A stretch of DNA of 46,902 bases from a virus, in IMG/VR virus record IMGVR_UViG_3300043426_000009, one strand, 5' to 3'. Shown here one piece after another: positions 22,147 through 46,902 of the stretch (its first letter is position 1; every line of letters begins with the position of its first letter). Position numbers and translations under genes: made by a program. The notes beneath the pieces are model-generated. The model saw only the letters and a list, made by a program, of their open reading frames with translations. It was not told the origin of the DNA and searched no databases.

Positions 22147-22152
22147 GTTTTA

Positions 22153-22398
22153 TTAAATATTTTGAATTGTTGTTTCCAAATTTTCGGTCATTTCTTTGAA
22201 CTGTACCAATGAAACAATATTTGGCGCTTTCATTGATGGGTGCGGGTCCGTGATATAAACTTTGTCATCAACAAATGACATTCCGCATCGGCGGCCGTTT
22301 ATTTTCAAATAAGCATCAAAATATCTTTGTGAATAAATTTGAAAATTTGTTGCATCATCAAAATTGTTTTCGATGATTGATGTTGTTTTTGAGTTCAT
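22153..22398 (-). CDS. Hypothetical protein (81 aa)
   Basis: ATG at 22398, 16 nt after a GC hairpin. Confidence 0.5.
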   Translation of the reverse strand: MNSKTTSIIENNFDDATNFQIYSQRYFDAYLKINGRRCGMSFVDDKVYITDPHPSMKAPNIVSLVQFKEMTENLETTIQNI

Positions 22399-22414
22399 AC
22401 GATTGTTTTTATTT

Positions 22415-22432
22415 GGGCGGCCGAAACCGCCC
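22415..22432. other. GC-rich hairpin GGGCGG-6 nt-CCGCCC, member of a repeated element
   Basis: The context TTTGGGCGG..CCGCCCGTTTTAAT is nearly identical to 37283-37307. It lies between a stop codon and the next ATG. Confidence 0.6.
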
Positions 22433-22439
22433 GTTTTAA

Positions 22440-22700
22440 TTATTCAAATTGTCCGTCTGCAATTACTACATTTCCAAAATGTGATAACACGATTTTTTCA
22501 ATTTTGAATCGTTTGACTTGATTCATCGGAAGTAAAAGATCAATGAACATTCCTGGTTGTGGTAAATGTTTCATTTTAGTTGTTACGATGTGTTGGCCGT
22601 CAATTTTAATTTGAATGTGAACTTCAAATTCATCTTCCAAGACTTCAATCATAAAATTGTAAAACAACTTTTCCACGAGCGTTCTAAAAAATTTTTTCAT
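22440..22700 (-). CDS. Hypothetical protein (86 aa)
   Basis: ATG at 22700, about 40 nt downstream of a promoter repeat. Confidence 0.5.
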   Translation of the reverse strand: MKKFFRTLVEKLFYNFMIEVLEDEFEVHIQIKIDGQHIVTTKMKHLPQPGMFIDLLLPMNQVKRFKIEKIVLSHFGNVVIADGQFE

Positions 22701-22742
22701 TATTTCAATGTGTTACATATTTGATTCGTTTCAAATACATCA

Positions 22743-22786
22743 CAAAGATACATTTAAAAATGTATTTACAAAACATTTTTTAATTT
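22743..22786 (-). promoter_or_regulatory. Bacteroidota-type promoter with an inverted repeat
   Basis: On the minus strand there is a TATCTTTG -7 box (22743-22750) and a TTTG -33 element (22769-22772) with an 18-nt spacer. The inverted repeat AAAAATGT-N9-ACATTTTT spans 22756-22780. An AAAACATTTTTTAATTT block lies upstream. Confidence 0.65.
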
Positions 22787-22851
22787 ATTTTAATCAAATC
22801 AATAAATTTATTTTTTATAGTAACCTTTGCCGGTGTGCAAACGTGGATTGT

Positions 22852-23262
22852 TTAACAGTTTGATGAAACTTGAATTGTTTTGATTTTTTCGGAACAATTG
22901 CGTTTTTCCTTTCGTTGGATGATCCATTGCGGTTGATACTTAATTTCGTTATGATAATACGCAAACGGAATTCTTGCACGGCTTGGATATAACAATTCGG
23001 CTTTGTTCACGGCATCTTGCACATCAACGGCGGCGATTTTGTGAATGTCATATTCTTTTTCTTGTTCGCCTGCGATGACATAACGGAACCAAACCATAAT
23101 CTCAAATTCATCAAGTATTTTATCATCTGGAAATGATGAATGCGGTGTGCATAATTTCGATTTGTCTTCAAACTCAATCAAAACGTGTGTTGTGTGTTTT
23201 TCAATGACTTTTGCAATTTTATTGCAATAAACAACGTTTGTTCCTACTTTGATGATTTTCAT
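22852..23262 (-). CDS. Hypothetical protein (136 aa)
   Basis: ATG at 23262, 1 nt after the upstream stop. Confidence 0.5.
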   Translation of the reverse strand: MKIIKVGTNVVYCNKIAKVIEKHTTHVLIEFEDKSKLCTPHSSFPDDKILDEFEIMVWFRYVIAGEQEKEYDIHKIAAVDVQDAVNKAELLYPSRARIPFAYYHNEIKYQPQWIIQRKEKRNCSEKIKTIQVSSNC

Positions 23263-23263
23263 A

Positions 23264-23575
23264 TTATTTGATTATTGGGTTTTCAAATTGTTTCAATGTC
23301 AATGGAATCATTGATTGACAACCAAGTTTATTGACAACCAACAAATGTTTTTTCAATTTCGTATTTGGTTGCAATTTCATATTTGGATTCCAATTGTTTT
23401 GAATCAATCCAAATTGTTTGTCGGTTATGATGAAAAACTTTCCTTTTGCTTGTTTTAATTTTTCATTCAATGATTGTTGATTTGCTGCAAAGAATGATTT
23501 TTGAACGTCCATAACGTTAAATTTATCAACGAATATCGCCCATTTGATTGTGTAAGGATTTAAAATTGCATTCAT
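23264..23575 (-). CDS. Hypothetical protein (103 aa)
   Basis: ATG at 23575, downstream of a promoter repeat. Confidence 0.5.
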   Translation of the reverse strand: MNAILNPYTIKWAIFVDKFNVMDVQKSFFAANQQSLNEKLKQAKGKFFIITDKQFGLIQNNWNPNMKLQPNTKLKKHLLVVNKLGCQSMIPLTLKQFENPIIK

Positions 23576-23605: not shown

Positions 23606-23650
23606 CAAAGATACATTTATTTTTGTTCCTGCAAAACATTTTTTAATTTA
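23606..23650 (-). promoter_or_regulatory. Bacteroidota-type promoter (same subfamily as 22743)
   Basis: TATCTTTG -7 box (23606-23613) and TTTG -33 element (23632-23635) with an 18-nt spacer. Shares ACAAAGATACATTTA and CAAAACATTTTTTAATTTA with the 22.7 kb copy. Confidence 0.65.
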
Positions 23651-23683
23651 TTTTTAAAACATTTTTAAATTTACATAAAAAAG

Positions 23684-25921: not shown

Positions 25922-26081
25922 ATGCTTTTTGTTGATGCCAACAAAATGGTTTTATTGATTCGTGCAATTTGGATTCATCGCTTGTTTTAGCGTTCTTGGT
26001 TTATTGTATAAATTTCTAATCAATGGCGGTTTTCGCTTTCGTGGAATCACAATCAACAATCGGTCGCCACGTTGGAATTTT

Positions 26082-26444
26082 TCAATCATTTCTTTGAAAT
26101 TTTGTTGAACGGTCATCGTTCGGACTTTTGGGCTTGGGTTCCTGGTCATTATCATTGTGCGATTCATTGTGTTTTTCTTTTTGATAAATCTTAATTAATT
26201 CATCTATTGATTTAATATTTTTTTTGTCGAAAACTTTTCGTGAATTGAAATCAATCCAATAATATTTTGATTCATCATCAATTTCAAATCCTTTTATGTT
26301 TTCGCATTCCAAACTTGTATATGCGTTTTTTGATAACCATTCAATAAAATCTTTTGTGAATTTCATTGATGCTTTTTCACAATTTTCGGCACATTCAAAA
26401 ATTGTTGTTCCGGACAAAATCGCATTTTTAAATATTTGTTTCAT
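26082..26444 (-). CDS. Hypothetical protein (120 aa)
   Basis: ATG at 26444 forms an ATGA overlap with the upstream ORF. Confidence 0.5.
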   Translation of the reverse strand: MKQIFKNAILSGTTIFECAENCEKASMKFTKDFIEWLSKNAYTSLECENIKGFEIDDESKYYWIDFNSRKVFDKKNIKSIDELIKIYQKEKHNESHNDNDQEPKPKSPNDDRSTKFQRND

Positions 26445-29351: not shown

Positions 29352-30415
29352 AATTTCGACAACCATTGATTAAAAATTTCCGTTGCAACTTGGGCCGTCA
29401 TTACGGGCGGGACCGACATTCCAATTAAATAAATTGGTTTGTTTCTTTTGAAATCATAATCAATCGGATATGAACCGATTCGACACAATTCATCTTTTGT
29501 CAATTTTCTTTTTTGTTCATAATGAAATAAATCGGAACCGGCCGCAATGGTATTGCAAACTTGATCCGGATGCAATTTGATTGAATTAAAACGATTTCCT
29601 TTTGGATGAACCGTTGCAATTGATTTTCCAGGTTCACACGTGTCGTAATAAATTAAATCGCACGGTGTGATTTTTTCAAATGGTTCAACGTTCGGGCCAT
29701 CTTCTACCATTTTATATGGAATTTTTGGTTCTTTAAAATTCAATAATAATTCCGGTGTTGTTGTGAACAAATCAACTTGCGTTAAAAATTGCGGTGCCAA
29801 ATCTTTTCTTAATGCGATGAAAAAAACACGTTTTCGGCGTTGTGGAACACCCATTTTTGAAGCGTTCAACAACCAATGTTGGCAATAATAACCGGCTTCA
29901 TCAAATGCTTTGTAAATTCTTCGCACATACGAACGTGCATTTCCCATCAACAAACCCGACACGTTTTCAGCCACAACGACTTTCGGTTGTAATTTTTCGG
30001 CCAAATCAATAAAATCAAAAAACAAATTATCAAGAATTTGTTTTGCTTGACCCTCACGAAATTTCTTTTCTTTGCCCCAATCTTTTTCACGTGAACCCGA
30101 CATTGAAAAACTTGAACACGGCGGCGAACCGTCCAAAATATCCAAGTTAAATAAATCTTCCGGCAAATCATCACGCAATTTGAACGTTTGAATTGGTTCC
30201 AAAAAAGCATATTTTGGTTTATGATTTGCAACATACGATTCAATCATTTTAGGATCAATTTCATTACATCCTAAAACATCAAATCCGGCTAATTTATAAC
30301 CAAATGAACTCCCTCCACCACAAGCAAAACAACTGAATATTTTCCCTTTGTCTTTTGTAAAATTGGCATTTTCTAATGACCAATTAAAATCGAATCTATG
30401 TTTTTCTATTTCCAC
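29348..30415 (-). CDS. DNA (cytosine-5) methyltransferase (355 aa)
   Basis: C5-MTase motifs are present in order: FACGGGSSFG (I), GSPPCSSFS (IV), VVAENVSGL (VI) and VPQRRKRVFF (VIII). The start at 30415 is GTG. Confidence 0.85.
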   Translation of the reverse strand: MEIEKHRFDFNWSLENANFTKDKGKIFSCFACGGGSSFGYKLAGFDVLGCNEIDPKMIESYVANHKPKYAFLEPIQTFKLRDDLPEDLFNLDILDGSPPCSSFSMSGSREKDWGKEKKFREGQAKQILDNLFFDFIDLAEKLQPKVVVAENVSGLLMGNARSYVRRIYKAFDEAGYYCQHWLLNASKMGVPQRRKRVFFIALRKDLAPQFLTQVDLFTTTPELLLNFKEPKIPYKMVEDGPNVEPFEKITPCDLIYYDTCEPGKSIATVHPKGNRFNSIKLHPDQVCNTIAAGSDLFHYEQKRKLTKDELCRIGSYPIDYDFKRNKPIYLIGMSVPPVMTAQVATEIFNQWLSKL

Positions 30416-30888
30416 GTTTTTTTGTTTTTTATATCTGAAATTGTTTTTCTATGCACATTGAATTTTTCGCCGATGTAAACACAATTAAACCCTTGATTTA
30501 AAAGTTTTTTTATTTCAATCACTTGTATTTCTGTTAATTTTGATTGATGATGTTTTTCGCCTTTGATGTTTTTATTTTCGGTTTTATTTTTATGATAATG
30601 AACCATATTTTCCGATGCGGAACACCATTCTAAATTATCAACGTGATTATTTTGTTTATTTCCGTCTTTATGATTAACGTAATATTTGCCCGGAATTTTT
30701 GGTAAAAACGTTAATGCAATTAATTTATGAATAAACATTTTTACTTTTGTTGAACCTAATTGAACACGTAAATAACCGCTTGAATTTGGCGAACCTTTCA
30801 AAGGTTTATTGTATCGTTTACTTTTTACGTTTCCGTAATTTGAACACAAATATTGTGTTGCATTTTTAATTTCTTTGTATTCTTCCAT
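30406..30888 (-). mobile_element. Free-standing HNH homing endonuclease gene (160 aa)
   Basis: NUMOD4-like N-terminus (YLCSNYGNVKS), HNH core (NHKDGNKQNNHVDNLEW) and a C-terminal HTH-like region. It has its own TATGTTTG box at 30911-30918. Confidence 0.75.
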
Positions 30889-30945
30889 ATTTTTATTTTT
30901 TTATACACCGCAAACATATAAATTATATTCCGATTATAAAGAAAA

Positions 30946-31683
30946 TTATTTTGATGATTTTAAAAGTTCACGAATTTTTGTTTTTGTTTGCAATGGAAAA
31001 TCGGAACCTAAAACCCAATTTGCATAATGCGGATCATCAACAACCGGTTTGTTCACGTTTTTTCCAAATGACCAATAAACAACACCATCTTTGATGTATG
31101 TTTTGCCGGCATAATCAAAACGTTTTTTTTCATCTTGACATTTTTCATCAATTTCTTTTGGTGTGATTTCCGGATTTTCTTTTGTTTGCAGCAACAAAAT
31201 TTCCAATGTTGCACGGACATCATTCAACGCATCGTGGGCGTCTTCCAAATCATTTCCGGTATAACGTTTGTATGTATCGCCAAGTTTATGACTATTCAAT
31301 AAACGTTCGTGTTTTAATACATCAACAAAAATTGGTTCCCACGTTGGAAATTCAATTTTGCATCGGTTGAATTCTTCAATCAACAACGGAATGTCAAAGT
31401 TGTCGGAATTGTAACCGCCGAAATCACACCCGGCCATATATTTATTCAATGCTTTTGCGATTTGAAAAAACGTTGGTGCATCTTTTACCATTTCATCCGT
31501 GATCCCGTGAACATCGGACGCTTCTTTTGGAATTTTGATTTGCGGATTAATCAACATTTTTTTTTCTTCTTTGCTGCCGTCAATGTTTATCTTGATGCAA
31601 GCGATTTGACAAATGCGGTCGTTGGCAATTGAAACACCCGTGGTTTCTAAGTCAAAAAATACAATTGGATTTTCGATTTTCAT
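30946..31683 (-). CDS. DEDDh 3'-5' exonuclease, DnaQ/epsilon-like (245 aa)
   Basis: Exo I FFDLETTG, Exo II YNSDNFDIPLL and Exo III HDALNDV. Confidence 0.8.
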   Translation of the reverse strand: MKIENPIVFFDLETTGVSIANDRICQIACIKINIDGSKEEKKMLINPQIKIPKEASDVHGITDEMVKDAPTFFQIAKALNKYMAGCDFGGYNSDNFDIPLLIEEFNRCKIEFPTWEPIFVDVLKHERLLNSHKLGDTYKRYTGNDLEDAHDALNDVRATLEILLLQTKENPEITPKEIDEKCQDEKKRFDYAGKTYIKDGVVYWSFGKNVNKPVVDDPHYANWVLGSDFPLQTKTKIRELLKSSK

Positions 31684-31718: not shown

Positions 31719-31763
31719 CAAATATACAATTATTTACTTTGTATCAAAACATTTTTTAATTTT
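31719..31763 (-). promoter_or_regulatory. Bacteroidota-type promoter
   Basis: TATATTTG -7 box (31719-31726) and TTTG -33 element (31745-31748) with an 18-nt spacer. A CAAAACATTTTTTAATTT block is shared with other copies. Confidence 0.6.
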
Positions 31764-31777
31764 TTTTAAACATAAAA

Positions 31778-31807: not shown

Positions 31808-32368
31808 TTAGTAATTTATTGCATCCGTCCACATAATGATTTTCATTTTGACTTTTTCTTTTTTGATGTATGGAAGAAACCATTCATAAAAATCATAAAA
31901 TATTAATCCGTCATTCATCGCAATCAATGATGAATTTAACAATCTTGAAACGACATTGTTTTTTTCGTTATCGTGTCCAAGTTCAACTTTAATTGCATTG
32001 TCTTTCAAATAAATTTCAACATCAATCAATTTTTTAATTTCTTGATCTGGTGCAAACTTTATTTGATTTGAATGATACGGTTTATCAATCCAAATTCGAG
32101 GGCTAAACATTTGACCTTGTTTGTGTGTTTTTCCTTGCCGCACGGTGTGAAATTTTTCATCAACGATGTTTTTGTTTAACGATTGATAAAAGTCCGTTAA
32201 TTCGCTTTGATTTCTTTCCGGATTATTTTGAACCAACCATTCAAAATATTCTTTTTTATAAAATTTGATTTTCAATGCGTTCAACATTTTTTCGACAAAA
32301 TATGTAGACATTCCGCTTTGAATATGATACGCCGGAAATTTGCGTGAAAATGGAATTACTTTTGCCAT
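31808..32368 (-). CDS. Hypothetical protein (186 aa)
   Basis: ATG at 32368 forms a TAATG junction with the upstream gene. No secure motif. Confidence 0.5.
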   Translation of the reverse strand: MAKVIPFSRKFPAYHIQSGMSTYFVEKMLNALKIKFYKKEYFEWLVQNNPERNQSELTDFYQSLNKNIVDEKFHTVRQGKTHKQGQMFSPRIWIDKPYHSNQIKFAPDQEIKKLIDVEIYLKDNAIKVELGHDNEKNNVVSRLLNSSLIAMNDGLIFYDFYEWFLPYIKKEKVKMKIIMWTDAINY

Positions 32369-32595
32369 TATGCTTGCGGGATTTTTACAACATCGGTTTC
32401 ATCGCCATAATCTTTGTGTTGTTGGTCAAGGCCGATTTTATTATAATTGTGCATCACTTTTGTCATCACATCAACTATTTCAAATACTGTAAAATCGCCA
32501 ACCACTTTTTTTGATGTTTCATTGACTGCATCAAACATCGCTTTTTCAAGTGCCAACATTCGTTCTTTTGATTTTTGTGTTTTGGTCTTTGCCAT
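32368..32595 (-). CDS. Hypothetical protein (75 aa)
   Basis: ATG at 32595. Confidence 0.5.
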   Translation of the reverse strand: MAKTKTQKSKERMLALEKAMFDAVNETSKKVVGDFTVFEIVDVMTKVMHNYNKIGLDQQHKDYGDETDVVKIPQA

Positions 32596-32611
32596 TTTTT
32601 AAATAATTATA

Positions 32612-32872
32612 TTAAACATTCGCTTCGCCGTTTTCATTAACTGTAAACATTGCAACCGGCGGATGTGCAACGCCCAAAATTTTTAAAAACAATGGATTTC
32701 CTTTTTGTAATGATTCCAAATCTTCTTTATTCGGCATCCAAGCCGTTAAAATATAATGAAAACCTTGTGCATCAACATTTTTTTCTGCTGGCAAACTTGC
32801 ACATTCTTCATCGGTCATATTTTCTGGTTTTGTCAAATTTACATTTGATCCTTCAAAATTTATTGGGTGCAT
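32612..32872 (-). CDS. Hypothetical protein (86 aa)
   Basis: ATG at 32872. Confidence 0.5.
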   Translation of the reverse strand: MHPINFEGSNVNLTKPENMTDEECASLPAEKNVDAQGFHYILTAWMPNKEDLESLQKGNPLFLKILGVAHPPVAMFTVNENGEANV

Positions 32873-32876
32873 AATT

Positions 32877-35263: not shown

Positions 35264-35296
35264 ATTTCCACGTTGTGCGAGATGCTACGAGAGAAC

Positions 35297-35986
35297 TCAA
35301 AACAACGACGTTTGAGATTGTTCATTTGTAATTCTTTTGGTTAAAACTGAATAATATTTTTTATCAATTTCGCTTCCTAAAAAATTTCTTTTTTCTTTTA
35401 TACAAGCAATTGCAGTTGTACCACTTCCCATAAATGGGTCAAAAATCAAATCGTTTTCTTTACTTGAATTTACAACCAAAGTGCGAATAATGTTTAATGG
35501 CTTAACAGTTGGGTGTTCAAAATCGCTTTTTGAATTGTTTTGCAAAAAATATTTCTTCTTACTTGCGTAATCGCCACCTAAATAAGCTCCTTTACCTCTC
35601 ATAAAAATTATGTATTCAGTATCGCTTAAATATTTATTATTGGTTGTAGGTATTGGATTTAGCTTGTGGTAGCAAAGTATATCTGTATTCATATTATTTT
35701 CTTTTCCCCAAAGAAGTATTTGTAAAACTTGGTCTTTTGAGCAAAAAAAGTAACAATTAAATATTTTCAAAACTCTTTTACATTCGTCTAAAACAATATT
35801 TTCAAAACCATCACTTAATGATTTAACGCCTTTGTGATAATCTCGTTGTTCAGTCCCAAAACAACCGCCACCGCCACCACTAACAATTTCATACGGTGGA
35901 TCTGCAATTACTAAATCAACAGAATTGTCGGGCAATCTTTTTAAGGTGTTTAAACAATCCTCATTGTATATTTTATTTAATTCCAT
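35297..35986 (-). CDS. DNA methyltransferase, DPPY type (N6-adenine or N4-cytosine, beta-class order) (229 aa)
   Basis: Motif IV VIADPPYEI lies near the N-terminus and motif I DPFMGSGTT near the C-terminus. Composition is atypical, and the gene has its own promoter copy and a long leader. Confidence 0.8.
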   Translation of the reverse strand: MELNKIYNEDCLNTLKRLPDNSVDLVIADPPYEIVSGGGGGCFGTEQRDYHKGVKSLSDGFENIVLDECKRVLKIFNCYFFCSKDQVLQILLWGKENNMNTDILCYHKLNPIPTTNNKYLSDTEYIIFMRGKGAYLGGDYASKKKYFLQNNSKSDFEHPTVKPLNIIRTLVVNSSKENDLIFDPFMGSGTTAIACIKEKRNFLGSEIDKKYYSVLTKRITNEQSQTSLF

Positions 35987-36168
35987 TTATATAAAATTAT
36001 TAGTAAATAAAAGCACCATCGCACAACAGCCGTTTTGCAAAAGCGGGGTTTCGGTGTTTAATTCAAGTTTTATGCTATTATCAATCATTTGTGCTATATT
36101 TAAAGTTTAGTGATTTTAATCCCCCGCCTTCGCAAAGCGGGCAGACCGTTTTAAAGTTTTTTACTTCG
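35987..36168 (-). promoter_or_regulatory. Long structured 5' leader of the DPPY methyltransferase gene
   Basis: About 180 nt lie between the promoter and the ATG. Hairpin CCCGC-9 nt-GCGGG spans 36123-36141 and the near-palindrome CCGTTTTGCAAAAGCGG spans 36030-36046. An alternative 6-bp GC pairing (36043-36048 with 36122-36127) is mutually exclusive with both. Confidence 0.4.
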
Positions 36169-36213
36169 CAAATGTAAATAAAAAAATGTATTATAAAAAC
36201 ATTTTTTAATTTA
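36168..36213 (-). promoter_or_regulatory. Promoter/operator cassette, copy 3 of the exact 25-mer
   Basis: GCAAATGTAAATAAAAAAATGTATT at 36168-36192. TACATTTG -7 box (36169-36176). Inverted repeat AAAAATGT-N9-ACATTTTT at 36182-36206. The -33 position reads TTTT. Confidence 0.65.
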
Positions 36214-36226
36214 TTTTAAAAATATT

Positions 36227-36610
36227 TTAAAACGTCAAATCATCGTGTTCTTCTTCTTTTGTCGTTGATTGTGGATTTGTTGTTGTTTGTTGTTTGTTTT
36301 GATATTCATCAACCGCACTTGTTGATTTTGGCGCTTGACCAACTTTTTCCAATTTCCAACCACGCAATGAATTGAAATATTTTTTTTCGCCTTGCGGATT
36401 GATCCATTCACGACCGTTGATGTTGATTGCAATTTTTACAACATCATCAAGTTTGTAATTATTTAATAAATCGCATTTGTCTTGCGTGAATTCTATCAAT
36501 ATTTTTTGCGGATATTGTTCATCCGTTTCAATTGCAACGTCTCTTTTTTTGAATGATGCCGAAATTTCTTTTACATCATCAATCAATATTAGTTTTCCTA
36601 TTAAGTCCAT
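36227..36610 (-). CDS. DUF3127-type OB-fold protein, probable single-stranded DNA-binding protein (127 aa)
   Basis: The pattern ETDEQYPQKILIEFTQDKCDLL...INGREW...YFNSLRGWKLEKV is typical of Bacteroidota DUF3127. The acidic C-terminal tip EEEHDDLTF resembles the SSB tail. Confidence 0.65.
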   Translation of the reverse strand: MDLIGKLILIDDVKEISASFKKRDVAIETDEQYPQKILIEFTQDKCDLLNNYKLDDVVKIAININGREWINPQGEKKYFNSLRGWKLEKVGQAPKSTSAVDEYQNKQQTTTNPQSTTKEEEHDDLTF

Positions 36611-36614
36611 TTTT

Positions 36615-36806
36615 TTAAGTTTCTTTTATTGAACAATATCCAACTTGATACGCTTGATATTTACAACCTGGTTGTTTTTCCATATCAAGATATTGTTGAA
36701 ATGTCATTGTTTTTTTCTTTATAATTCCGTTTTGAAATCTGAAAACATCCACCATTGTTTCCGGCGGTGTTTTAACATACAATGTTTCTTTTTGCTTTTG
36801 AGTCAA
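36615..36806 (-). CDS. Small hypothetical protein (46-63 aa; start uncertain)
   Basis: The track start at 36920 lies inside the NinG-like gene. A TTG at 36806 lies just after that gene's stop, and an ATG lies at 36755. Confidence 0.35.
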   Translation of the reverse strand: MTQKQKETLYVKTPPETMVDVFRFQNGIIKKKTMTFQQYLDMEKQPGCKYQAYQVGYCSIKET

Positions 36807-36807
36807 T

Positions 36808-37278
36808 TTACTTGCGGCCACCGTGAATTTTTGAAAGTTGATATTGTTTTGATAATTCCGGATTGTTTTCAAGTTCCAAATTATGTTCCAAACAACACCC
36901 GGCAAAATAACGCACATCAATTGTCAAAGGAATATTATTTTCACGTGCCCAATCATCGGCAAAACCAATTCGGCCCATTGTGTGTTCAATTGTTGTTGAA
37001 TTGCGATTGCAACCATCAATGAAACAAATTTTGTTTTCTGGTTTTGACAAAAATTCAATTCTTAGAACTGTATATTTTGCATTGATGATTTTTTGTTTTT
37101 GCGAAATTTTGTTGATTGGTTTTCTTGGCTTATTATTCCAAACAATCGGTTTTTTTTCTTTTGGTTTTTCGCATTTCTTTTGACATTCAATTGAACAATA
37201 TTTGTCGGTTGTTTTGAACAATTTGAATTCTTTGCGGCATTCCTGATTTTTACAATTTTTGTGCGTTTTTAGTTTCAT
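36808..37278 (-). CDS. NinG/Rap-like recombination endonuclease (156 aa)
   Basis: An N-terminal zinc motif (CKNQECRKEF...DKYCSIECQKKC) and a C-terminal Cys/His cluster (CFIDGC...EH...CCLEHN) match lambda NinG-family proteins. Confidence 0.6.
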   Translation of the reverse strand: MKLKTHKNCKNQECRKEFKLFKTTDKYCSIECQKKCEKPKEKKPIVWNNKPRKPINKISQKQKIINAKYTVLRIEFLSKPENKICFIDGCNRNSTTIEHTMGRIGFADDWARENNIPLTIDVRYFAGCCLEHNLELENNPELSKQYQLSKIHGGRK

Positions 37279-37285
37279 AATATTT

Positions 37286-37301
37286 GGGCGGTTTCCCGCC
37301 C
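37286..37301. other. GC-rich hairpin GGGCGG-tttc-CCGCCC, second copy of the repeated element
   Basis: The same flanks as 22415-22432 (ATTTGGGCGG...CCGCCCGTTTTAA). It lies between the stop at 37310 and the ATG at 37278. Confidence 0.6.
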
Positions 37302-37309
37302 GTTTTAAA

Positions 37310-37930
37310 TTATTTCAACTTTGTTTCATCTTTTTCCGTTCCTGGTTCTTTGAACAAATCCGGATTTTCTTTTTTCTTCAATTCGGTTTCGATGTCAAGT
37401 TGCAATTTTTTTGATTGAAAACGATATGCGTAAACTTCTTTTTTGATTTTTTCGCAAATTTCTTGAACTTCATTTTCGTAACCTAAAACATCTTTTCCGA
37501 ATGTGATTTTGGAAACGGCCATTCCGATTGATCCACCTTTTGGAAGTTTCAATGAACCGGTAACCATTACGCCGTAAGTTTCGCCATCGCCTAAAAATGT
37601 AATCCCGTTTACATTGCAACGTGAAGTCGCTTCTTTGTGTCCGTCCATTGCCATTTTTAAAACATCCAAATCTTTTTTCGTGTGTTCACGTGAAAAATCC
37701 CATCCGTCTAAAATTCCGATTCTTTGGGCCATATATGGGGCCAATTCATCAAGTGATGCTTGCAAGTCCGGATGTGGTTGAACTTCGCCGATTTTTGTCA
37801 ATTGCCCGGCATCATTTCCGGATTCGTGATGCGTAACGTCCGCACCATCTTTCGTGATTTTAACTTTGATTAAATCGAAATGTTGATATTCCAATTGTCT
37901 CAATTTTTGTTCTTCGTGTGATTTTGCCAT
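37310..37930 (-). CDS. Hypothetical protein (206 aa)
   Basis: ATG at 37930. No motif recognised. Confidence 0.5.
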   Translation of the reverse strand: MAKSHEEQKLRQLEYQHFDLIKVKITKDGADVTHHESGNDAGQLTKIGEVQPHPDLQASLDELAPYMAQRIGILDGWDFSREHTKKDLDVLKMAMDGHKEATSRCNVNGITFLGDGETYGVMVTGSLKLPKGGSIGMAVSKITFGKDVLGYENEVQEICEKIKKEVYAYRFQSKKLQLDIETELKKKENPDLFKEPGTEKDETKLK

Positions 37931-37955
37931 TTTTAGCGATTTTTAAATTAAACAA

Positions 37956-38240
37956 TTATTTATTTTTATGATGATTTATGCAATCATTTTTGTTTTCAAA
38001 TATTAATTCGTGGCCGGTCAATTTTGTTTCAACATTGAGTGTTTTTGCTAATGATACAAATGAACTTTCATTTCCTTTGATAATCATAAAACCGGCACAT
38101 TGTAATTTTTTGTTTTTATGACAAACAAACGAATGTTGATTTAATATTTCAATCATTCGATTTTCGCCCAACCAACCTTTCAAACTATCTTTTCTAAACG
38201 GACAATCTTTGCACGGTTTTTTACAATTTGGCAAATTCAT
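37956..38240 (-). CDS. Cys-rich, putative zinc-binding small protein (94 aa)
   Basis: ATG at 38240 forms an ATGA overlap. Contains CKKPCKDCPF...CHKN...CAG. Confidence 0.5.
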   Translation of the reverse strand: MNLPNCKKPCKDCPFRKDSLKGWLGENRMIEILNQHSFVCHKNKKLQCAGFMIIKGNESSFVSLAKTLNVETKLTGHELIFENKNDCINHHKNK

Positions 38241-38614
38241 TTTGATTGTGCTTTTATCGACATATCAAGTTGATATTGCATTGCATCACGCACGTTGATT
38301 ATTGCATTAATTCTTTGATCTAATGATGTGATGAATTTTTTGCATTCACTTGGTGTCGTTGCAATATAATATCCTTTTCCGGTCGCAATCAAATTATAAA
38401 TTAAATTATTAATTCTAATGTGATTTATTATTTTTCGCAATCGTGCCGGATCAATTTTATAGTTTGCACCTTTCATCAGCTTTATAATTTCCGTTGATGA
38501 AATTTGATTTGATTCGCCACGTTTGGTGTTGAATCCTTTTATAATCGCCGGAAGAAGTGTTTTTTCTTCATAATCGGTCAATTCGTGTGTTTGTTCTTCA
38601 AATCCGTCAATCAT
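38237..38614 (-). CDS. Hypothetical protein, possibly winged-helix-like (125 aa)
   Basis: ATG at 38614 lies 1 nt after the upstream stop (38616-38618). The track start at 38719 lies inside the upstream ORF. Confidence 0.5.
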   Translation of the reverse strand: MIDGFEEQTHELTDYEEKTLLPAIIKGFNTKRGESNQISSTEIIKLMKGANYKIDPARLRKIINHIRINNLIYNLIATGKGYYIATTPSECKKFITSLDQRINAIINVRDAMQYQLDMSIKAQSK

Positions 38615-38615
38615 A

Positions 38616-38903
38616 TCAAAAATCAATATAGTTAAACAATTCATCTTTTGTGAAATTGAATTTTGCATTTTCACCGTTATTTCTGAATAAAAATATTTCG
38701 TGAATTTCAAAATTTGCAATTACAATTTTGTGATTTTCGATTTTCATATTAACACATAATTCAACTGTTAAATGATAAACGTTTTCGTTATCTTCTTTGA
38801 AATAAGAATTCAAATTTACGAACTGAGTTTGATTGTTTTCAAAACTCACTTTATCTGGTAGGAATTCCAGATTTTCAAGAATTTTTGATTTTGTATTTTC
38901 CAC
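38616..38903 (-). CDS. Orphan AT-rich ORF behind a duplicated promoter (95 aa from GTG)
   Basis: The track start at 38996 lies upstream of and inside the promoter copy. A conserved ATCGTG gives a GTG at 38903, about 15 nt after the predicted transcription start. The ORF is CG-depleted relative to its neighbours. Confidence 0.45.
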   Translation of the reverse strand: MENTKSKILENLEFLPDKVSFENNQTQFVNLNSYFKEDNENVYHLTVELCVNMKIENHKIVIANFEIHEIFLFRNNGENAKFNFTKDELFNYIDF

Positions 38904-38950
38904 GATAAAAAGTTTTTGTTTTGGCAAATGTAAATAAAAAAATGTATTTA
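38901..38950 (-). promoter_or_regulatory. Promoter/operator cassette, copy 2 of the exact 25-mer (upstream half truncated)
   Basis: GCAAATGTAAATAAAAAAATGTATT at 38924-38948. TACATTTG -7 box (38925-38932). The downstream leader is near-identical to the 43.2 kb copy. The upstream half is replaced by the 3' end of the RusA-like gene. Confidence 0.55.
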
Positions 38951-38958
38951 CGATAAAT

Positions 38959-39498
38959 TTAAAATAAAGATTGTTGTGTTTGCTCCAGGCGTCCAATAAT
39001 TTTCAATTCAATTGCGGGATAACCTTTTTTATATTTCATATTGATTTCATCAACAAATCGAACCGTGTCATCTTTTAAAACATTGATTGTTTTAATTTCA
39101 TTGTCATATTTTTCGGCATTGATAATTTGTTTTGATGATGGTGTTTTCATTAAGTCAAGCAAAATTTTAGTCCAAAAATAAACTTTATTGTCAAGATCAA
39201 AATTGTCGGTCGGGAAATGATATGTGATTTCGATTTTGCATTTTTCAATTTTTGGAATTTCTTGAATGTGTTGCATCATCCATTCTTTAGCGAAATTGAC
39301 AACTTTTGATTTTATAGCCCAATGTGTACCATCATAAAAAATATTTGCGGTCAAATAATTAACATCTTTTTCAATCAATTTTCCTTTTGAATCAAGTTTG
39401 ATTTTTTTGTTAATCTTTTCATATTTAGTCGGCGGATCACGGAACATTTCGTGAAATAAAATATCATCCATTTGATTTGAATTTAAAATTTTTGTCAT
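38959..39498 (-). CDS. RusA-like Holliday junction resolvase (179 aa)
   Basis: NFDLDNKVYFWTKILLDLM and NVLKDD match the RusA D-x-DN...K...D...DD pattern. An alternative ATG at 39471 gives an 8-nt overlap with the upstream gene. Confidence 0.5.
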   Translation of the reverse strand: MTKILNSNQMDDILFHEMFRDPPTKYEKINKKIKLDSKGKLIEKDVNYLTANIFYDGTHWAIKSKVVNFAKEWMMQHIQEIPKIEKCKIEITYHFPTDNFDLDNKVYFWTKILLDLMKTPSSKQIINAEKYDNEIKTINVLKDDTVRFVDEINMKYKKGYPAIELKIIGRLEQTQQSLF

Positions 39499-40504
39499 TT
39501 CTTAATTCAAGAAACTTTCTTTTTGTGATGACATTTTGTGCGATGTTCATCGTTGAATCACGTGTGATTTCTTTATATTTTTCTTCACGTTTGTTTTCAC
39601 GCACAACCGGGATGCAACTTTTCATCAAGACTGAAATTGATTCACGAATTTGTTTTTTTTCCAATGAACGTGCCGCATCAAACATCGCATCATCAATTTC
39701 ATCAAAATCGGTTGTTTTTAAATATTCGTTTTCCAACATAAATTTTTTCACAAATGACCAAGCGACTTCGCCCATATTTTGCAAATAATCATCGGATTCT
39801 ATCAACAAATCATTCATAAATGCAACAACATCAATTTTTTCTTCGACTTTTGGTTTTTCAAGTTTTTTCCAATTTTCTTGAATTTCTTGTTGTGTCAATT
39901 TTCGTGTTGATTTAATTTGTCGGAATGAACCAGTTTCAAGAAAATCGAAATGTTCAAAATATACCATTTGCATAAATCTATCAGCAACACGGCCGTCATA
40001 ATTTTTTGCGATTTCTTCAATTGTCAAATTCGTTGTTCCAAACGTGCGAAATCCTTTCGACACCCACCATTCATAACGTTTTAATAATACGAATCGAATG
40101 ACATTCATTTTGTTGTTGTAATGCGAAAAAAATTTGTCATCGCCTTCATCGCCTATGTCATCAATAAATAAATTTTTTACTTTTATGAATTCCAAAAGTT
40201 CTGCTTCGCCTTTTTCTTTGAAAACATTGACCAATTCTTTTGCACTTGTTTTTTTGAAAATATATTGGTTTCTTATTCTGAAATGTCGATGATGAACAAC
40301 ATCGAAAAAAAATGATTTACCGACACCATATTTTTTGTTGAATGCAATTATCCCACGATTATAATCAACTTCGGGATCATTATTGAAATTATAAATCACA
40401 TCCAAACAAAATGTAAATGTTTTTTCAATTGTTGGCGATGTAATGAATTTTTTAACAAAAAACATTTCAGCTTCATTAATAAATCTTTTATACGAATCTT
40501 TCAT
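39464..40504 (-). CDS. DnaC/IstB-like AAA+ ATPase, probable helicase loader (346 aa)
   Basis: Walker A YGVGKS and Walker B LFIDDIGDE, followed by KRY...GTTNL...GRVADRF as in DnaC-family loaders. Confidence 0.75.
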   Translation of the reverse strand: MKDSYKRFINEAEMFFVKKFITSPTIEKTFTFCLDVIYNFNNDPEVDYNRGIIAFNKKYGVGKSFFFDVVHHRHFRIRNQYIFKKTSAKELVNVFKEKGEAELLEFIKVKNLFIDDIGDEGDDKFFSHYNNKMNVIRFVLLKRYEWWVSKGFRTFGTTNLTIEEIAKNYDGRVADRFMQMVYFEHFDFLETGSFRQIKSTRKLTQQEIQENWKKLEKPKVEEKIDVVAFMNDLLIESDDYLQNMGEVAWSFVKKFMLENEYLKTTDFDEIDDAMFDAARSLEKKQIRESISVLMKSCIPVVRENKREEKYKEITRDSTMNIAQNVITKRKFLELRNDKNFKFKSNG

Positions 40505-40505
40505 T

Positions 40506-41300
40506 TTATTTCAAATTTGGTTCATCGGACGGTGCAAATACAAAATTATTTGATCCGGTTGTTAATGTTGAATTTTGAATTATATCGGTTGATTCAACCA
40601 AATATGAATCCATTTTATTTCCAAACAATGTTTCTGGCCGGATGTATTTTTTCATTTTTTCATCATTTGACCATTTTATTATTGCAGCATCAATGACTTT
40701 TTTAAAATCATCAATTTTGAATCCTTCTTTTATTCTGGCTTTTATTGGTGTTAAATTTCCGTTTGTCAATTTAAAACCTTGGCCACCTCTTTTTTCATTC
40801 AAGTATTTAATCACATCATCTGGAATCGTTGGTAAATCAATTTCTTCAAACAATGTCGGTTCCGATTCTTGGAACAATGATATTTCTTTATTATCATTTT
40901 TATTATTATTTGATTTATTATTATTTGTTTGAACTATTTCTTTTTCTTGTTTTGAATTTGTTTGAATCCCAGTATTTAAAAATATTAAAATCTTGTTTTC
41001 AACAACTTTGAAATGTAGTTTTGCGGGAATTCCTTTCAACTTAGTTTCAACATATCCGACATCATTCAATATTTTTAAACATCGTTTTTGTGCGTGATAA
41101 TTCAATGATGTTGATGATTCTATGTTTTCCGATGTGTTATAAAAATAACCGTCATCATCAAGTTCATTTCTTGTTTCAAAATAAGAATGTTTGTCAATTA
41201 AATCGGCCAACAAAACGGCTGGTTCTATTCCGATATTTTTTGCAATTTCTTTGTTGACTATCCAAAACGCACTTTGTCCAAGTATTTTTTGTAAAATCAT
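40506..41300 (-). CDS. Replication initiator-like protein with a Phg_2220_C-type C-terminal domain (264 aa)
   Basis: An N-terminal wHTH-like region, an N-rich linker, and the C-terminal YLNEKRG...FKLTNGNLTPIKARIKEGFKIDDFKKVIDAAIIKW...YIRPETLFGNKMDSYL. ATG at 41300; the track start at 41303 is TTG. Confidence 0.6.
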   Translation of the reverse strand: MILQKILGQSAFWIVNKEIAKNIGIEPAVLLADLIDKHSYFETRNELDDDGYFYNTSENIESSTSLNYHAQKRCLKILNDVGYVETKLKGIPAKLHFKVVENKILIFLNTGIQTNSKQEKEIVQTNNNKSNNNKNDNKEISLFQESEPTLFEEIDLPTIPDDVIKYLNEKRGGQGFKLTNGNLTPIKARIKEGFKIDDFKKVIDAAIIKWSNDEKMKKYIRPETLFGNKMDSYLVESTDIIQNSTLTTGSNNFVFAPSDEPNLK

Positions 41301-41303
41301 CAA

Positions 41304-42074
41304 TTATTTATTTATAAGTTCAATCGCTAATTTAACACGATTTTCAAGAAACATTTTGTCTTCAACCGGAACTTCAAAACGAATGACATTGATGTTTTGA
41401 ATTCCAGATTCTTTATAAATATATGGCAACTCATCTTCTTTTGCACGACCAACTAACCAAAACGGTTCCGCAAGTTGACTGTTATACAATTTGATTTGTT
41501 CCAATTCTTCATAATATGGCATAAACACAATCAATTCGGCATAACGTGCTTTTAATATTGATGCGTTACTCACTAATTGCCAATAGTATTTTTCGCCCTC
41601 TTTTGATTGTTTTCGGATTGATTGTATTATTTCATTTCCGTTGATTGTTTTCTTCTTAGAAACGTTCAAACCGTCAAAATCATACAAATCTTTAACCAAG
41701 TTGTAAAATGCTTTTCGTGTCAATGGACATTTTATGTCCGTGATTGTATCAACTTTTTTGTCAACTTCAATTTTTCCGTCCGGCGTTCCAACCCATTCCG
41801 GAAATTTCGGGTGTTCAAATGTTACATCGGATTGAAATTGATATTTAAAACCCAATGAATCGTGAACAATTTTTTCGCAAAGTTTGCCCCACGAAAACGC
41901 CATTACTTCAACACTGTTTTCAAGTCGTTGTTTAAAAAATCTTTCCATTCTGCATTCTTCAACGTATGTGAAAAATGGTGCGCCTGGTTCGCCTTTGCTT
42001 CTTCCGTTTGATGTCAATGCGACAATATCGCTTGATGTGCATCTTCCAATTCTAATGTTTGATAAATTTCCCAC
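41304..42074 (-). CDS. YqaJ/lambda-Exo-like PD-(D/E)xK recombination exonuclease (256 aa)
   Basis: Motifs GTPDG, ITDIKCP and YYWQLVSNA. The start at 42074 is GTG. Confidence 0.7.
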   Translation of the reverse strand: MGNLSNIRIGRCTSSDIVALTSNGRSKGEPGAPFFTYVEECRMERFFKQRLENSVEVMAFSWGKLCEKIVHDSLGFKYQFQSDVTFEHPKFPEWVGTPDGKIEVDKKVDTITDIKCPLTRKAFYNLVKDLYDFDGLNVSKKKTINGNEIIQSIRKQSKEGEKYYWQLVSNASILKARYAELIVFMPYYEELEQIKLYNSQLAEPFWLVGRAKEDELPYIYKESGIQNINVIRFEVPVEDKMFLENRVKLAIELINK

Positions 42075-42087
42075 GAGTTTAATGTTT

Positions 42088-42663
42088 TTATAAGTTTCTT
42101 AAAAATTTTAATGTTTTATCATACGATGTGATTTCTTTGTTTTCGATGATTCTTTTGATGTGTTCAAAATCATCGGCCGGAATCAATGTTTCTTTTTCCG
42201 AAAACAATTTGTCAAGTTCTTTTTCTTTGGCTTCATCATCTTGAATGATTAACGGTTTCACACTCCAAATATCCGATTTAAAAGCATTAGTTGAATTCTT
42301 TTGTTTTCCCAAATATTCAATTCTTAACGGTGTGCCGGCAACTATTTTTCCGGAATTCATAGCACTTTGTAATGATGCAACTAATCGTTTTGAACCATTT
42401 CGGAATGTTTTCAATTCGCCGGTTTCTTTTTGTTCTAAAAATATGATGCACGGAAGTTCGATTGTTTCGCCAGTTTGTTCATCGGTATAACTTGAACTTT
42501 TAATGTCTTGGAAGAAACACAATTTTGTTTCGCCCTCTTTTTCCGGCGTCCAATATTCGCTGGTTAAATCAATTGGCAAAATCTTTGCACCTTGCAAATT
42601 CGGCAATTCTTCAAGTAAATCATAAGATTGAATTTCCGATGATGTTTTTTTTACATTTTCCAT
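42088..42663 (-). CDS. Hypothetical protein adjacent to the exonuclease, candidate recombination partner (191 aa)
   Basis: ATG at 42663. It occupies the position normally held by a single-strand annealing protein. No SSAP family motif was recognised. Confidence 0.35.
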   Translation of the reverse strand: MENVKKTSSEIQSYDLLEELPNLQGAKILPIDLTSEYWTPEKEGETKLCFFQDIKSSSYTDEQTGETIELPCIIFLEQKETGELKTFRNGSKRLVASLQSAMNSGKIVAGTPLRIEYLGKQKNSTNAFKSDIWSVKPLIIQDDEAKEKELDKLFSEKETLIPADDFEHIKRIIENKEITSYDKTLKFLRNL

Positions 42664-42687
42664 TTTAATAATTTTTTAAGATTGTTT

Positions 42688-42774
42688 TTATAATTCCGTG
42701 GCCAAAATATAAAACGGCCAACACGATCCACACGATGCAAAAAATATCAAATTTTGAATATTTTTTTGATTCAT
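42688..42774 (-). CDS. Possible 28-aa hydrophobic peptide coupled to the HTH gene
   Basis: ATG at 42774 forms a TAATG junction with the HTH stop codon. Translates as MNQKNIQNLIFFASCGSCWPFYILATEL. It is below the ORF track threshold. Confidence 0.25.
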   Translation of the reverse strand: MNQKNIQNLIFFASCGSCWPFYILATEL

Positions 42775-43028
42775 TATTTTTCATTTGAAACAAATTCGTT
42801 CAATTTACAATTTCCGATTTCCATCAACATTTGAAGTCTTTGAACAACATTTGGAACTTTGCCGCTTTTCCAATCCGTGAACAATTGCGGCGTAACGCCC
42901 AATTTTTCCGCAAGCAATTTTCTTGACATTTGCGGATGAACCGTTGGATTTGCTTTGTTCCATTTTTCAATGATAACATCAACATCAATAATTGTTTTCA
43001 CTTCTTTTTTTTCTTTAATTTTCGACAT
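42774..43028 (-). CDS. XRE-family helix-turn-helix transcriptional regulator (84 aa)
   Basis: HTH motif MSRKLLAEKLGVTPQLFTDWKSGK. ATG at 43028; the track start at 43073 is TTG. Confidence 0.75.
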   Translation of the reverse strand: MSKIKEKKEVKTIIDVDVIIEKWNKANPTVHPQMSRKLLAEKLGVTPQLFTDWKSGKVPNVVQRLQMLMEIGNCKLNEFVSNEK

Positions 43029-43050
43029 AATTTTTGATTTTAAATAATTA

Positions 43051-43212
43051 TTAATTGTTTTTACTATAGTCAATTTCTAAACTTGACAATGGTTTGTCAA
43101 AATTTGGGTCTTTGCGATCCACAAATTTTGTTTCTTTTTTCATTGATGAAATTTCAACTATTTTTGGAAATCCATCGGCTCTTGGCGGGTTTAATTCTGC
43201 AATTGTTTTCAC
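43051..43212 (-). CDS. Unannotated small ORF, first gene after the early promoter (53 aa from GTG)
   Basis: The GTG at 43212 lies in a conserved ATCGTG shared with the 38.9 kb cassette. Translates as MKTIAELNPPRADGFPKIVEISSMKKETKFVDRKDPNFDKPLSSLEIDYSKNN with TAA at 43051-43053. Confidence 0.35.
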   Translation of the reverse strand: MKTIAELNPPRADGFPKIVEISSMKKETKFVDRKDPNFDKPLSSLEIDYSKNN

Positions 43213-43275
43213 GATAAAATGTTTTTTGTTTCTGCAAATGTAAATAAAAAAATGTATTACGCAAACATTTTTTTA
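43210..43275 (-). promoter_or_regulatory. Early promoter/operator cassette, copy 1 of the exact 25-mer
   Basis: GCAAATGTAAATAAAAAAATGTATT at 43234-43258. TACATTTG -7 box (43235-43242) and TTTG -33 element (43262-43265) with a 19-nt spacer. A perfect 10-bp inverted repeat AAAAAAATGT-N9-ACATTTTTTT spans 43246-43274. Confidence 0.7.
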
Positions 43276-43288
43276 TTTTTTTAATCAC

Positions 43289-43317
43289 AAAAAAAAACGC
43301 CATTCTTTCAAATGACG
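43289..43317 (-). terminator. Intrinsic terminator closing the late/lysis transcription unit
   Basis: Minus-strand RNA reads CGUCAUU-ugaaag-AAUGGCG, with one G:U pair that exists only on the minus strand, followed by U9. Confidence 0.75.
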
Positions 43318-43365
43318 GTTAAAAAACTTTTTTATAGACTCGTGAAAATCTTTTGCAAATATAAA

Positions 43366-46511: not shown

Positions 46512-46900
46512 AATTTCAATCTTTTTATTTTAGTTTCAAATATTTTTTTTAATTCCGGATCATTCGTGTTGTTAAAAATAAATTCATAATGATTAATCAA
46601 TGATTTTTTTGTTTCATATTTCACATTATCAATTTGAATAAATTCCGGAAGTTCATTTTCAATAAATATGTCAATTTGACATTTTTCTTTTTTTATGAAT
46701 GCACGTTTGCCGCTTTTACTTAATATTGATTTTGTTTCAAATTCATTTATTTTTCCGAATTTTTCCAAACCATTTAATGACAAAACAACAATGTCAATGT
46801 CATTCGTTGTTTTCTTGGTGCCGTGAATAATCTCAGCAACACCACCAACGAAAATGATGTTTTCGTTGGTTGTTGCAATTTCTTTTATTAACTTGAACAT
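46508..46900 (-). CDS. Minimal nucleotidyltransferase-fold protein (130 aa), spanning the circular junction
   Basis: IIFVGGVAEIIHG...NDIDIVV and a later QIDIFIE match the Pol-beta NTase pattern. The ATG at 46900 lies inside the 127-bp repeat, and the stop of the fibre gene lies 10 nt downstream of this start when read across the junction. Confidence 0.5.
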   Translation of the reverse strand: MFKLIKEIATTNENIIFVGGVAEIIHGTKKTTNDIDIVVLSLNGLEKFGKINEFETKSILSKSGKRAFIKKEKCQIDIFIENELPEFIQIDNVKYETKKSLINHYEFIFNNTNDPELKKIFETKIKRLKL

Positions 46901-46902
46901 TG
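46776..46902. repeat. Terminal direct repeat, exact copy of 1..127
   Basis: Identical 127-mer at both window ends. Confidence 0.95.

Follow-up and report, generated by a model that had tools for sequence, protein, structure and literature searches.

The viral sequence IMGVR_UViG_3300043426_000009, analysed here as one stretch of 46,902 nt (the window), contains the same 25-nt sequence at three places, each time ahead of a different gene, which raises the question of what this repeat does and why its copies are identical to the last base. On the plus strand, GCAAATGTAAATAAAAAAATGTATT occurs exactly at 36168-36192, 38924-38948 and 43234-43258 (3 copies where 0 are expected; hereafter A, B and C). 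When up to 3 mismatches are allowed, there are no further copies in the window and 0 in 100 dinucleotide shuffles. All long open reading frames (ORFs) of the window are on the minus strand, and on this coding strand the repeat reads AATACATTTTTTTATTTACATTTGC, the 3' end of which, TACATTTG, matches TAnnTTTG, so that the repeat corresponds to a spacer followed by a -7 box. Both the three exact copies and the consensus match had been pointed out in a first-pass annotation of this DNA, and both are borne out, the former by exact search and shuffles. We conclude that the three 25-mers are very probably the cores (spacer plus -7) of early promoters read by the host primary sigma factor (sigma-A; -33 TTTG / -7 TAnnTTTG). 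The repeats are real, but they are not a new kind of element.

The two ends of the window (1-127 and 46776-46902) are identical 127-nt sequences, indicating that the assembly represents a complete genome of approximately 46,775 bp, either circularly closed or terminally redundant. Most of it is 96-99% identical to the FpV9, Fpv5 and FPSV siphophages of Flavobacterium psychrophilum (approximately 42.7 kb), an identity by which we class the window as a complete FpV9-like siphophage of this species. Aligned to Fpv5 (NC_031921) by blastn, the window falls into collinear blocks that are broken by insertions and replacements. The middle copy of the repeat, B, matches Fpv5 at 24/25 bases, and the exact 25-mer has zero matches in IMG/VR.

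Sigma-A promoters of F. psychrophilum carry the -7 box TAnnTTTG at -12 to -5, and the 5' untranslated regions (5'UTRs) of this species have a median length of 24 nt (PMC9723704). The F. johnsoniae version of the box, TAHHTTTG, has no G at the two n positions and is separated from the start site by 4-5 nt; AT-rich motifs around -18 and -28 stand out more than the -33 element there, and translation that does not use a Shine-Dalgarno sequence is favoured by an A at -3 (PMC6847099). A, B and C have a T7 tract near -18 and AT-rich sequence near -28; the fit is full for C, near-full for A and partial for B. The -33 element is TTTG at exactly 19 nt in C, TTTT in A and missing in B, where the 3' end of the RusA gene (stop codon 38961-38959) takes the place of the upstream half. 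Counted from the predicted starts, the leaders of C, B and A measure 18, 17 and 178 nt, respectively (approximately 25 nt for A in Fpv5), and those of C and B are A-rich, unstructured and carry A at -3. All copies are intergenic or at gene junctions and co-oriented with the genes, C being directly behind a terminator (43317-43298; Table 1). The phage copies resemble the primary-sigma promoters of Bacteroidota (sigma-ABfr / sigma-A) in their TAnnTTTG box, -33 TTTG at 19 nt, AT-rich spacer and A-tract, as well as in a start expected 4-5 nt past the box and in short A-rich leaders. They are unlike host sigma-A promoters in having ATACAT at -27..-21, which is very rare in host promoters of this architecture, and in being identical, all three, over 25 nt. 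A sigma-70-type promoter scan is inapplicable to this host, and its counts equal those of shuffles.

The copies listed by the first-pass annotation turned out to belong to a larger set. Repeat finding combined with a TAnnTTTG scan gave three more predicted promoters, with -7 boxes at 31726, 23613 and 22750, that share the upstream half; they have AAAT(A/T)AAATTAAAAAATGTTTTG in common with A and C, and their spacers are different. An nhmmer profile of the six sites recovers those six alone from the genome. They are confined to the coding strand and to the interval from 22.7 to 43.3 kb, and the structural module has none. Terminators are found directly upstream of C, 31726 and 23613; none precedes the internal promoters A and B. 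The architecture of the family can be written as A-tract, AATGTTTK, 19 nt, TAYATTTG, CA....

This architecture has a counterpart in the host. The pattern AAAAAATGTTTK-N19-TAYATTTG is present at more than 120 host loci among the matches listed (one genome per species), nearly all of them from Flavobacteriaceae or other Bacteroidota. Of the loci scanned with Rfam, 5/5 are just upstream of tRNA genes, often with a short conserved hairpin in between. By this comparison, the phage promoter family copies the architecture of host tRNA-operon (stable-RNA) promoters, which implies that its members are probably strong and would need no phage factor to fire. As a separate observation, many Flavobacteriaceae have a near-identical locus upstream of a tRNA cluster, AAAAAATGTTTT-N19-TACATTTG-CAGTCCGTTAGAAATAGCGGACTTTTTTT (among the host genomes L095-L174, e.g., L096 1275-1313 and L100 4521-4559), where the promoter is followed at once by a hairpin and a T-run, which may serve as leader, attenuator or tiny RNA.

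Searches with the two proteins encoded behind C, the small orf53 product and an XRE-like helix-turn-helix (HTH) protein, returned approximately 10 diverged lineages (L026/L084, L070, L085/L091, L086, L087, L088, L090, L092 and L093), which have the same promoter architecture at the same syntenic positions. A promoter between the last late gene and the pair of small ORF and XRE-like gene is present in every lineage whose contig covers this junction. Promoters after SSB are found in L070 (13858), L085/L091 (16668/10167) and L092 (10317), and a full promoter after RusA in L092 (6902). The latter reads AATACATTTTTTTACGTACATTTG and is 22/24 identical to the core in the window. Since the RusA and gp25 proteins of L092 and the window are 54% and 44% identical, respectively, conservation of the core to this degree suggests that it is old and under selection. 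The three sites are, as far as synteny can tell, conserved promoter positions: before orf53 and the XRE-like gene, after RusA and after SSB. In L070, near-identical promoter copies exist within one genome (84% over 64 nt). A 20-mer of the upstream half gave mostly chance matches in IMG/VR and one true syntenic relative, L016/L070, with 45% GC. Relatives collected via gp20 (L027-L060) are too distant and have no repeated cassettes, loci collected via SSB have an unrelated context, and an XRE profile run against metagenome contigs gave one FpV9-like contig among the matches listed.

In the arrangement that we propose, C would open the early region past the late-operon terminator and serve orf53, the XRE-like HTH gene and the replication genes, with B and A as internal booster promoters after RusA and after SSB. 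The promoter positions are ancestral and fixed in the phage group, and it is in the slot behind each of them that accessory genes are gained, lost or replaced. We infer promoter activity and transcription start sites from these features, and the assignment of the repeats as Bacteroidota sigma-A promoters heading early gene groups is very probably correct. Several points weigh against it. B lacks both the -33 TTTG and the A-tract and may consequently be weak, and the literature yielded no start mapping, reporter or transcriptome data for any FpV9-like phage. Identity over 25 bases is more than a generic sigma-A promoter requires, so that recognition by the polymerase alone does not explain it; spacers differ in the other three family members and in the homologous promoters of relatives. 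In addition, the ATACAT sub-motif is rare in host promoters of this architecture, as it is found in the spacer of 8/21 phage-group promoters versus 1/117 host promoters among the matches listed.

What, then, keeps the three cores the same? We infer that their exact identity may result from strong purifying selection on an old core together with homogenisation among the copies within the FpV9 lineage. The same core occupies all three positions only in this lineage, which points to homogenisation. Where the available FpV9-like sequences differ, the few substitutions lie beside the 24-nt core and not in it, which is weak evidence. Possibly, a phage regulator with the phage-specific AATACAT/TACAT sub-motif as its binding site reinforces the identity.

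The alternative that survives best takes this regulator as the main cause: the copies would be operator-bearing promoters, with the core kept because a phage DNA-binding protein co-regulates three early units. We regard this as possible, though not as the likely case. The candidate regulator is the XRE/Cro-like protein behind C, acting as an autoregulatory Cro- or Aca-like shut-off, and its candidate DNA targets are the 25-mer and CGTGGAAA-containing DNA. The core contains two TACAT(TT) repeats 14 nt apart; A and C, but not B, have an imperfect inverted AAAAAATGT...ACATTTTTT; and a perfect ATACAT-N6-ATGTAT palindrome overlaps the -7 box in promoter 22750 and in the early promoters of L086 and L090. 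The phage bias of the spacer ATACAT noted above fits an operator as well. Genomic layout also agrees: acr-aca operons consist of one or more small variable genes and a conserved HTH gene behind a strong promoter, and here a small variable ORF and then a conserved HTH gene follow a strong promoter. Lambdoid Cro/CI early promoters share this layout of strong early promoter, small variable gene(s) and conserved small HTH gene, and the palindromic or repeated words inside the promoter are a further likeness to lambdoid operators. However, the second half-site of A, B and C is a direct repeat, not an inverted one, and the upstream arm is missing from B. Relatives with different spacers keep the same presumed recognition helix (PQLxxDWK) in the XRE-like protein, with no visible co-variation. 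The 84-aa protein itself is sub-threshold in Pfam (HTH_26 E=0.009, 16.7 bits with a cutoff of 22; HTH_3 E=0.16), and its best PDB profile match has E=0.07, although GenBank FPSV records annotate it as XRE. In contrast to lambdoid operators, there are three identical cores without a clear dyad, the HTH protein falls below the cutoff, and no integrase/repressor pair was identified.

Less probable still, and in our view unlikely, is that the sequences serve as recombination linkers, in which promoter, 5'UTR and first-codon sequences are kept or used as short homologies for module exchange. Identity of the core as a by-product or an enabler of mosaicism is equally unlikely. Homology to Fpv5 is lost 21 nt past the 25-mer at A (36147) and again just behind the start codon behind promoter 23613 (23571), where the downstream ORF is replaced and homology ends right after ATGAA. 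In addition, ACGTGGAAAT is present at the 3' junction of two insertions, and unrelated first ORFs have GTG-GAA-AA(T)-AC starts in common. Nevertheless, only 2 of approximately 17 breakpoints are inside promoter cassettes versus approximately 0.4 expected, a weak enrichment by a rough estimate, and the others are elsewhere; moreover, promoter function accounts for the conservation without linkers.

The first-pass annotation had proposed a portable cassette that either co-regulates accessory genes, plausibly anti-defence genes, or has travelled with them as a moron. In the latter reading, the 25-mer would have been carried to its three sites along with the gene behind it. This is improbable, and the comparisons largely refute it, most clearly for A and C. 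B and C do share the core, the 5'UTR and the unusual ATC-GTG start. The likeness that had been described for these two copies further downstream, up to ATCGTG, is genuine, but it amounts to approximately 80% over 23-24 nt with one 1-nt indel. B resembles a partial copy (-27 to +21) without the upstream half, with TTTATCG on both flanks when compared to the promoter-less L091 junction, and the cargo behind the promoters differs among relatives. However, a cassette-plus-gene block that is present or absent as a whole was not found in relatives for A, B or C. Promoter A is shared by Fpv5, FPSV-D19 and the metagenome contig L081, in which it is followed by ...AAAACGTGGAAATATG and gp32 and no methyltransferase gene, showing that in the window this gene arrived without a promoter, behind a pre-existing A. 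For position 2, a weak syntenic gp25-like ORF (23% identity, E=0.004) has no promoter box in L091/L085 and follows the preceding gene, while L092 has a full promoter with a near-same core and two extra ORFs before a clear gp25 homolog (44%). For position 1, orf53 and promoter C are at the same place in all relatives that carry orf53. No coding-strand terminator was found behind orf53/XRE, gp25 or the methyltransferase gene, and the one unit of the window that looks like a classic moron is the HNH endonuclease gene (30406-30888), with a different promoter-like box at 30918. Morons are promoter-gene-terminator units; the methyltransferase and HNH endonuclease genes resemble them in being absent from close relatives, but the former brought neither promoter nor terminator and uses the resident promoter A. 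The promoters are therefore fixed and the first genes behind them exchanged, and the proposed co-regulation of accessory genes survives in a weaker form, as fixed promoter slots with exchangeable cargo rather than a travelling cassette. The narrower idea that B arose recently, when a 48-nt copy of C was inserted at the start of gp25, is weakened by the full promoter with near-same core in L092.

That the repeats are not promoters at all, and instead replication iterons, packaging sites or site-specific recombination sites, is hardly credible: they are exact repeats in the replication region, but the copies are 2.8 and 4.3 kb apart and not clustered, all are co-oriented with genes and, measured from the predicted start, 17-18 nt ahead of a start codon or leader, and each agrees with the consensus of host promoters in both sequence and spacing. 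PHIRE-type scans find regulatory repeats in phages. Promoter repeats of the T7-like kind serve a phage-encoded RNA polymerase and differ from host promoters, whereas the repeats here match the host consensus; no RNA polymerase is present in the RefSeq annotation of Fpv5, and the window proteins were scanned only in part. In halovirus HF2, promoter-bearing intergenic repeats at the heads of transcription units have been tested with reporters (PMC8707807). Both sets are near-identical short repeats heading units, but HF2 is archaeal and has other promoter elements, whereas the present repeats appear to be host-type bacterial promoters and not phage-polymerase targets.

Table 1. Predicted promoters, leaders and genes at the three repeat positions, related features of the window and slot contents in relatives (window coordinates unless a genome is named).
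Feature	Location	Strand	Description
Promoter C (position 1, early)	43235..43290	-	A-tract, AATGTTTG (-33 TTTG), 19-nt spacer, TACATTTG 43242-43235; predicted start ~43230
Promoter B (position 2)	38925..38951	-	core alone: spacer and TACATTTG 38932-38925; predicted start ~38920
Promoter A (position 3, after SSB)	36169..36224	-	A-tract, AATGTTTT, 19-nt spacer, TACATTTG 36176-36169; predicted start ~36164
5'UTR of transcript C	43210..43230	-	18 nt, A-rich, unstructured, up to ATC-GTG start of orf53
5'UTR of transcript B	38901..38920	-	17 nt, up to ATC-GTG-GAA-AAT, gp25 start
Family promoter, class II, TG-TATATTTG	31719..31775	-	behind terminator 31803-31778; heads exonuclease/methylase genes
Family promoter, class II, TATCTTTG	23606..23662	-	behind terminator 23715-23684
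Family promoter, class II	22743..22799	-	inverted repeat ATACAT-N6-ATGTAT, overlaps -7 box; within segment non-homologous to Fpv5
Mini transcription unit	43289..43363	-	-7 box TATATTTG 43363-43356; hairpin at predicted +1, loop UUUUCACG; A/U stretch; terminator 43317-43298
orf53	43051..43212	-	53 aa, conserved early gene, motif G(F/Y)PK...KDPNFDKPL
XRE/Cro-like HTH protein	42774..43028	-	84 aa; kept behind position 1 in all relatives
gp25	38616..38903	-	95 aa from GTG 38903; RefSeq: 126 aa from TTG 38996
Methyltransferase insertion vs Fpv5	35275..36146	-	872 bp: 160-nt GC-hairpin leader and DPPY methyltransferase 35297-35986
Alternative slot ORFs	L086 9661-9990; L087 80-390; L090 9688-10000; L088 175-348		
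Cargo after SSB	L070, L085/L091		81-91 aa ORF
Cargo after SSB	Fpv5		GTG-GAA-ATA-TGA remnant only
Cargo after SSB	window		methyltransferase
Cargo after SSB	L092 (10314-11652)		81-aa ORF, then GTP cyclohydrolase I and QueF-like genes (7-deazaguanine pathway)

The genes right behind the promoters had been described as accessory-like, and the comparisons confirm that they vary among relatives. orf53 is unannotated in the GenBank FpV9-like records examined (Fpv5 and FPSV-D19), where it falls into the gap between gp18 and gp19 of NC_031921. The first-pass annotation was right that this ORF is unannotated and ahead of the XRE-like gene; it is not an orphan, however, but a conserved gene of the phage group. 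The family is shallow (14 clusters), has no Pfam domain and a peptide-like look, and it is carried by the window, L026, L070, L085/L091, L092 and L093. In L086, L087, L088 and L090, the slot is taken by unrelated ORFs of 51-57 aa. ORFs in the slot between promoter and XRE-like gene are of 51-52 aa with an M-E-N/K-T start and/or of approximately 50-57 aa with the pattern ...LI..GF.L.....N..VL.L.K.KTTI.LF; by eye, the latter recalls HicA-like small proteins.

For gp25, the GTG at 38903 is the more likely start when compared to the TTG at 38996, as an ORF from the latter would span its own promoter. The gp25 family is likewise shallow, and relatives of gp25 were not found in IMG/VR. Claims that the genes behind the repeats are CG-depleted or compositionally foreign are not convincing: gp25 has a GC content of 24% (z=-2.0) and a CpG observed/expected ratio of 1.42 (z=-0.4), and the methyltransferase gene has z-scores of -0.5 for GC and -1.5 for CpG.

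The methyltransferase is of the DPPY kind and its gene sits behind a structured 178-nt leader (z=-2.0), both as initially described. It belongs to the N6/N4 type, with an IADPPYE motif and a PF01555 match (E=1.5e-29). The 872-bp insertion point is AAAACG^TGGAAAT, between the 5'UTR of promoter A and gp32. Within the inserted part of the leader (35987-36146, minus strand), the GC-rich arms GCCCGCTTTGCGAAGGCGGGG and CCCCGCTTTTGCAAAACGGC pair across approximately 75 nt, with a minimum free energy of -38.5 kcal/mol (z=-2.0). No DNA similar to this leader was found in the phage collection, and no DNA-level donor of the insertion was found, only distant similarity in the methyltransferase coding sequence. 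Together with the L092 genes (Table 1), there are two cases of DNA-modification cargo, plausibly with an anti-restriction role.

A further element is present between the last late gene and promoter C. This mini transcription unit is conserved in seven lineages, all 7 of which have a TATATTTG/TATCTTTG box, and its terminator is conserved as CGCCA...TGGCG-T(n). Its hairpin loop is UUUUCACG in the window and UUUCCACG in Fpv5, FPSV-D19 and L081. The loop sequence TTCCACG (UUCCACG) is the reverse complement of CGTGGAA, which is the start-codon context of several early genes. In the window, CGTGGAA-type sites are found at gp25, gp38, the gp32 leader, gp21 (CGTGGGAA) and orf53 (CGTGAAAA). GTG start codons coincide in L091 with each of the two CGTGGAA sites and with a third, related GCGTGGAC site. 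L092 and L070 have neither the loop motif nor CGTGGAA, and the called starts of L092 are all ATG, as are the inspected starts of L070. The complementarity extends to a perfect 11-nt match with the gp21 start in L026 (p=0.005) and to 12 nt with an early leader in L088 (p=0.025), while in the window, loop-target complementarity is not significant by shuffling (p=0.2-0.9).

Tentatively, and at odds that we consider rather low, the mini unit could encode a small RNA (or the 3' end of the late-operon transcript could act as one) that targets the A-rich leader and C-GUG-GAA-A start of early genes. Its 5' loop would pair with the GUG start regions of orf53, gp21, gp25, the gp32 leader and gp38, and pairing would tune or shut off early translation. 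If true, this would explain the unusual GUG-GAA-AAU start that is common to unrelated first genes, and the mini unit would become the first described case of an antisense-type regulator from a Flavobacterium phage. A DNA site that is used in both orientations would give the same pattern as RNA pairing. Phage antisense RNAs that mask translation starts include the c4 RNA of P1/P7, the sar RNA of P22 and lambda OOP. Like these, the mini unit has its own predicted promoter box, a 5' hairpin, a terminator and a loop complementary to early-gene starts; unlike them, it is not located opposite its targets, and the complementarity is short (7-11 nt) and non-significant in the window. The mini unit has no Rfam match at either gathering or permissive thresholds, and RNAalifold recovered the terminator alone because the 5' hairpin was misaligned. 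A compensatory pair between the UUUUCACG loop of the window and the CGUGAAAA of orf53 was considered and rejected, as Fpv5, FPSV-D19 and L081 have UUUCCACG with the same orf53 start; the supposed compensatory change is a polymorphism of the window.

These data provide a sequence-level map of the early transcription units of FpV9-type phages, which are in use in phage therapy trials against F. psychrophilum in trout farming, and show that these phages borrow the promoter architecture of host tRNA operons. Accessory genes are exchanged between relatives at three fixed "expression slots", such as a DNA methyltransferase here and 7-deazaguanine pathway genes in the relative L092. For annotation, the map adds a missed 53-aa gene and corrects gp25, which is annotated across its own promoter in public records. 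The slots may be useful in the hunt for anti-defence genes, and the presumably strong promoters for Flavobacterium genetics.

Other parts of the window differ from Fpv5 as well. A homing-endonuclease gene with HNH_3 and NUMOD4 domains is inserted at 30404-30954 (ORF 30406-30888, minus strand) and has its own TATGTTTG box at 30918. This insertion lies between an exonuclease gene and a gene for a 355-aa methyltransferase, the first codons of which it replaced (ATG CAA GAA AAC became GTG GAA ATA GAA). More insertions or replacements are present at 25965-26438, 31863-32875, 22152-22926 and 23122-23570, with small ORFs of 71, 120, 186, 75, 86, 103, 136, 86 and 81 aa that have no Pfam match. Together with the methyltransferase and HNH insertions, these segments make up the excess of approximately 4 kb over FpV9-type genomes. 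In the distant relative L038, the segment 6647-12695 holds three diverged copies of an HNH-type endonuclease segment, approximately 2.7-3.0 kb apart.

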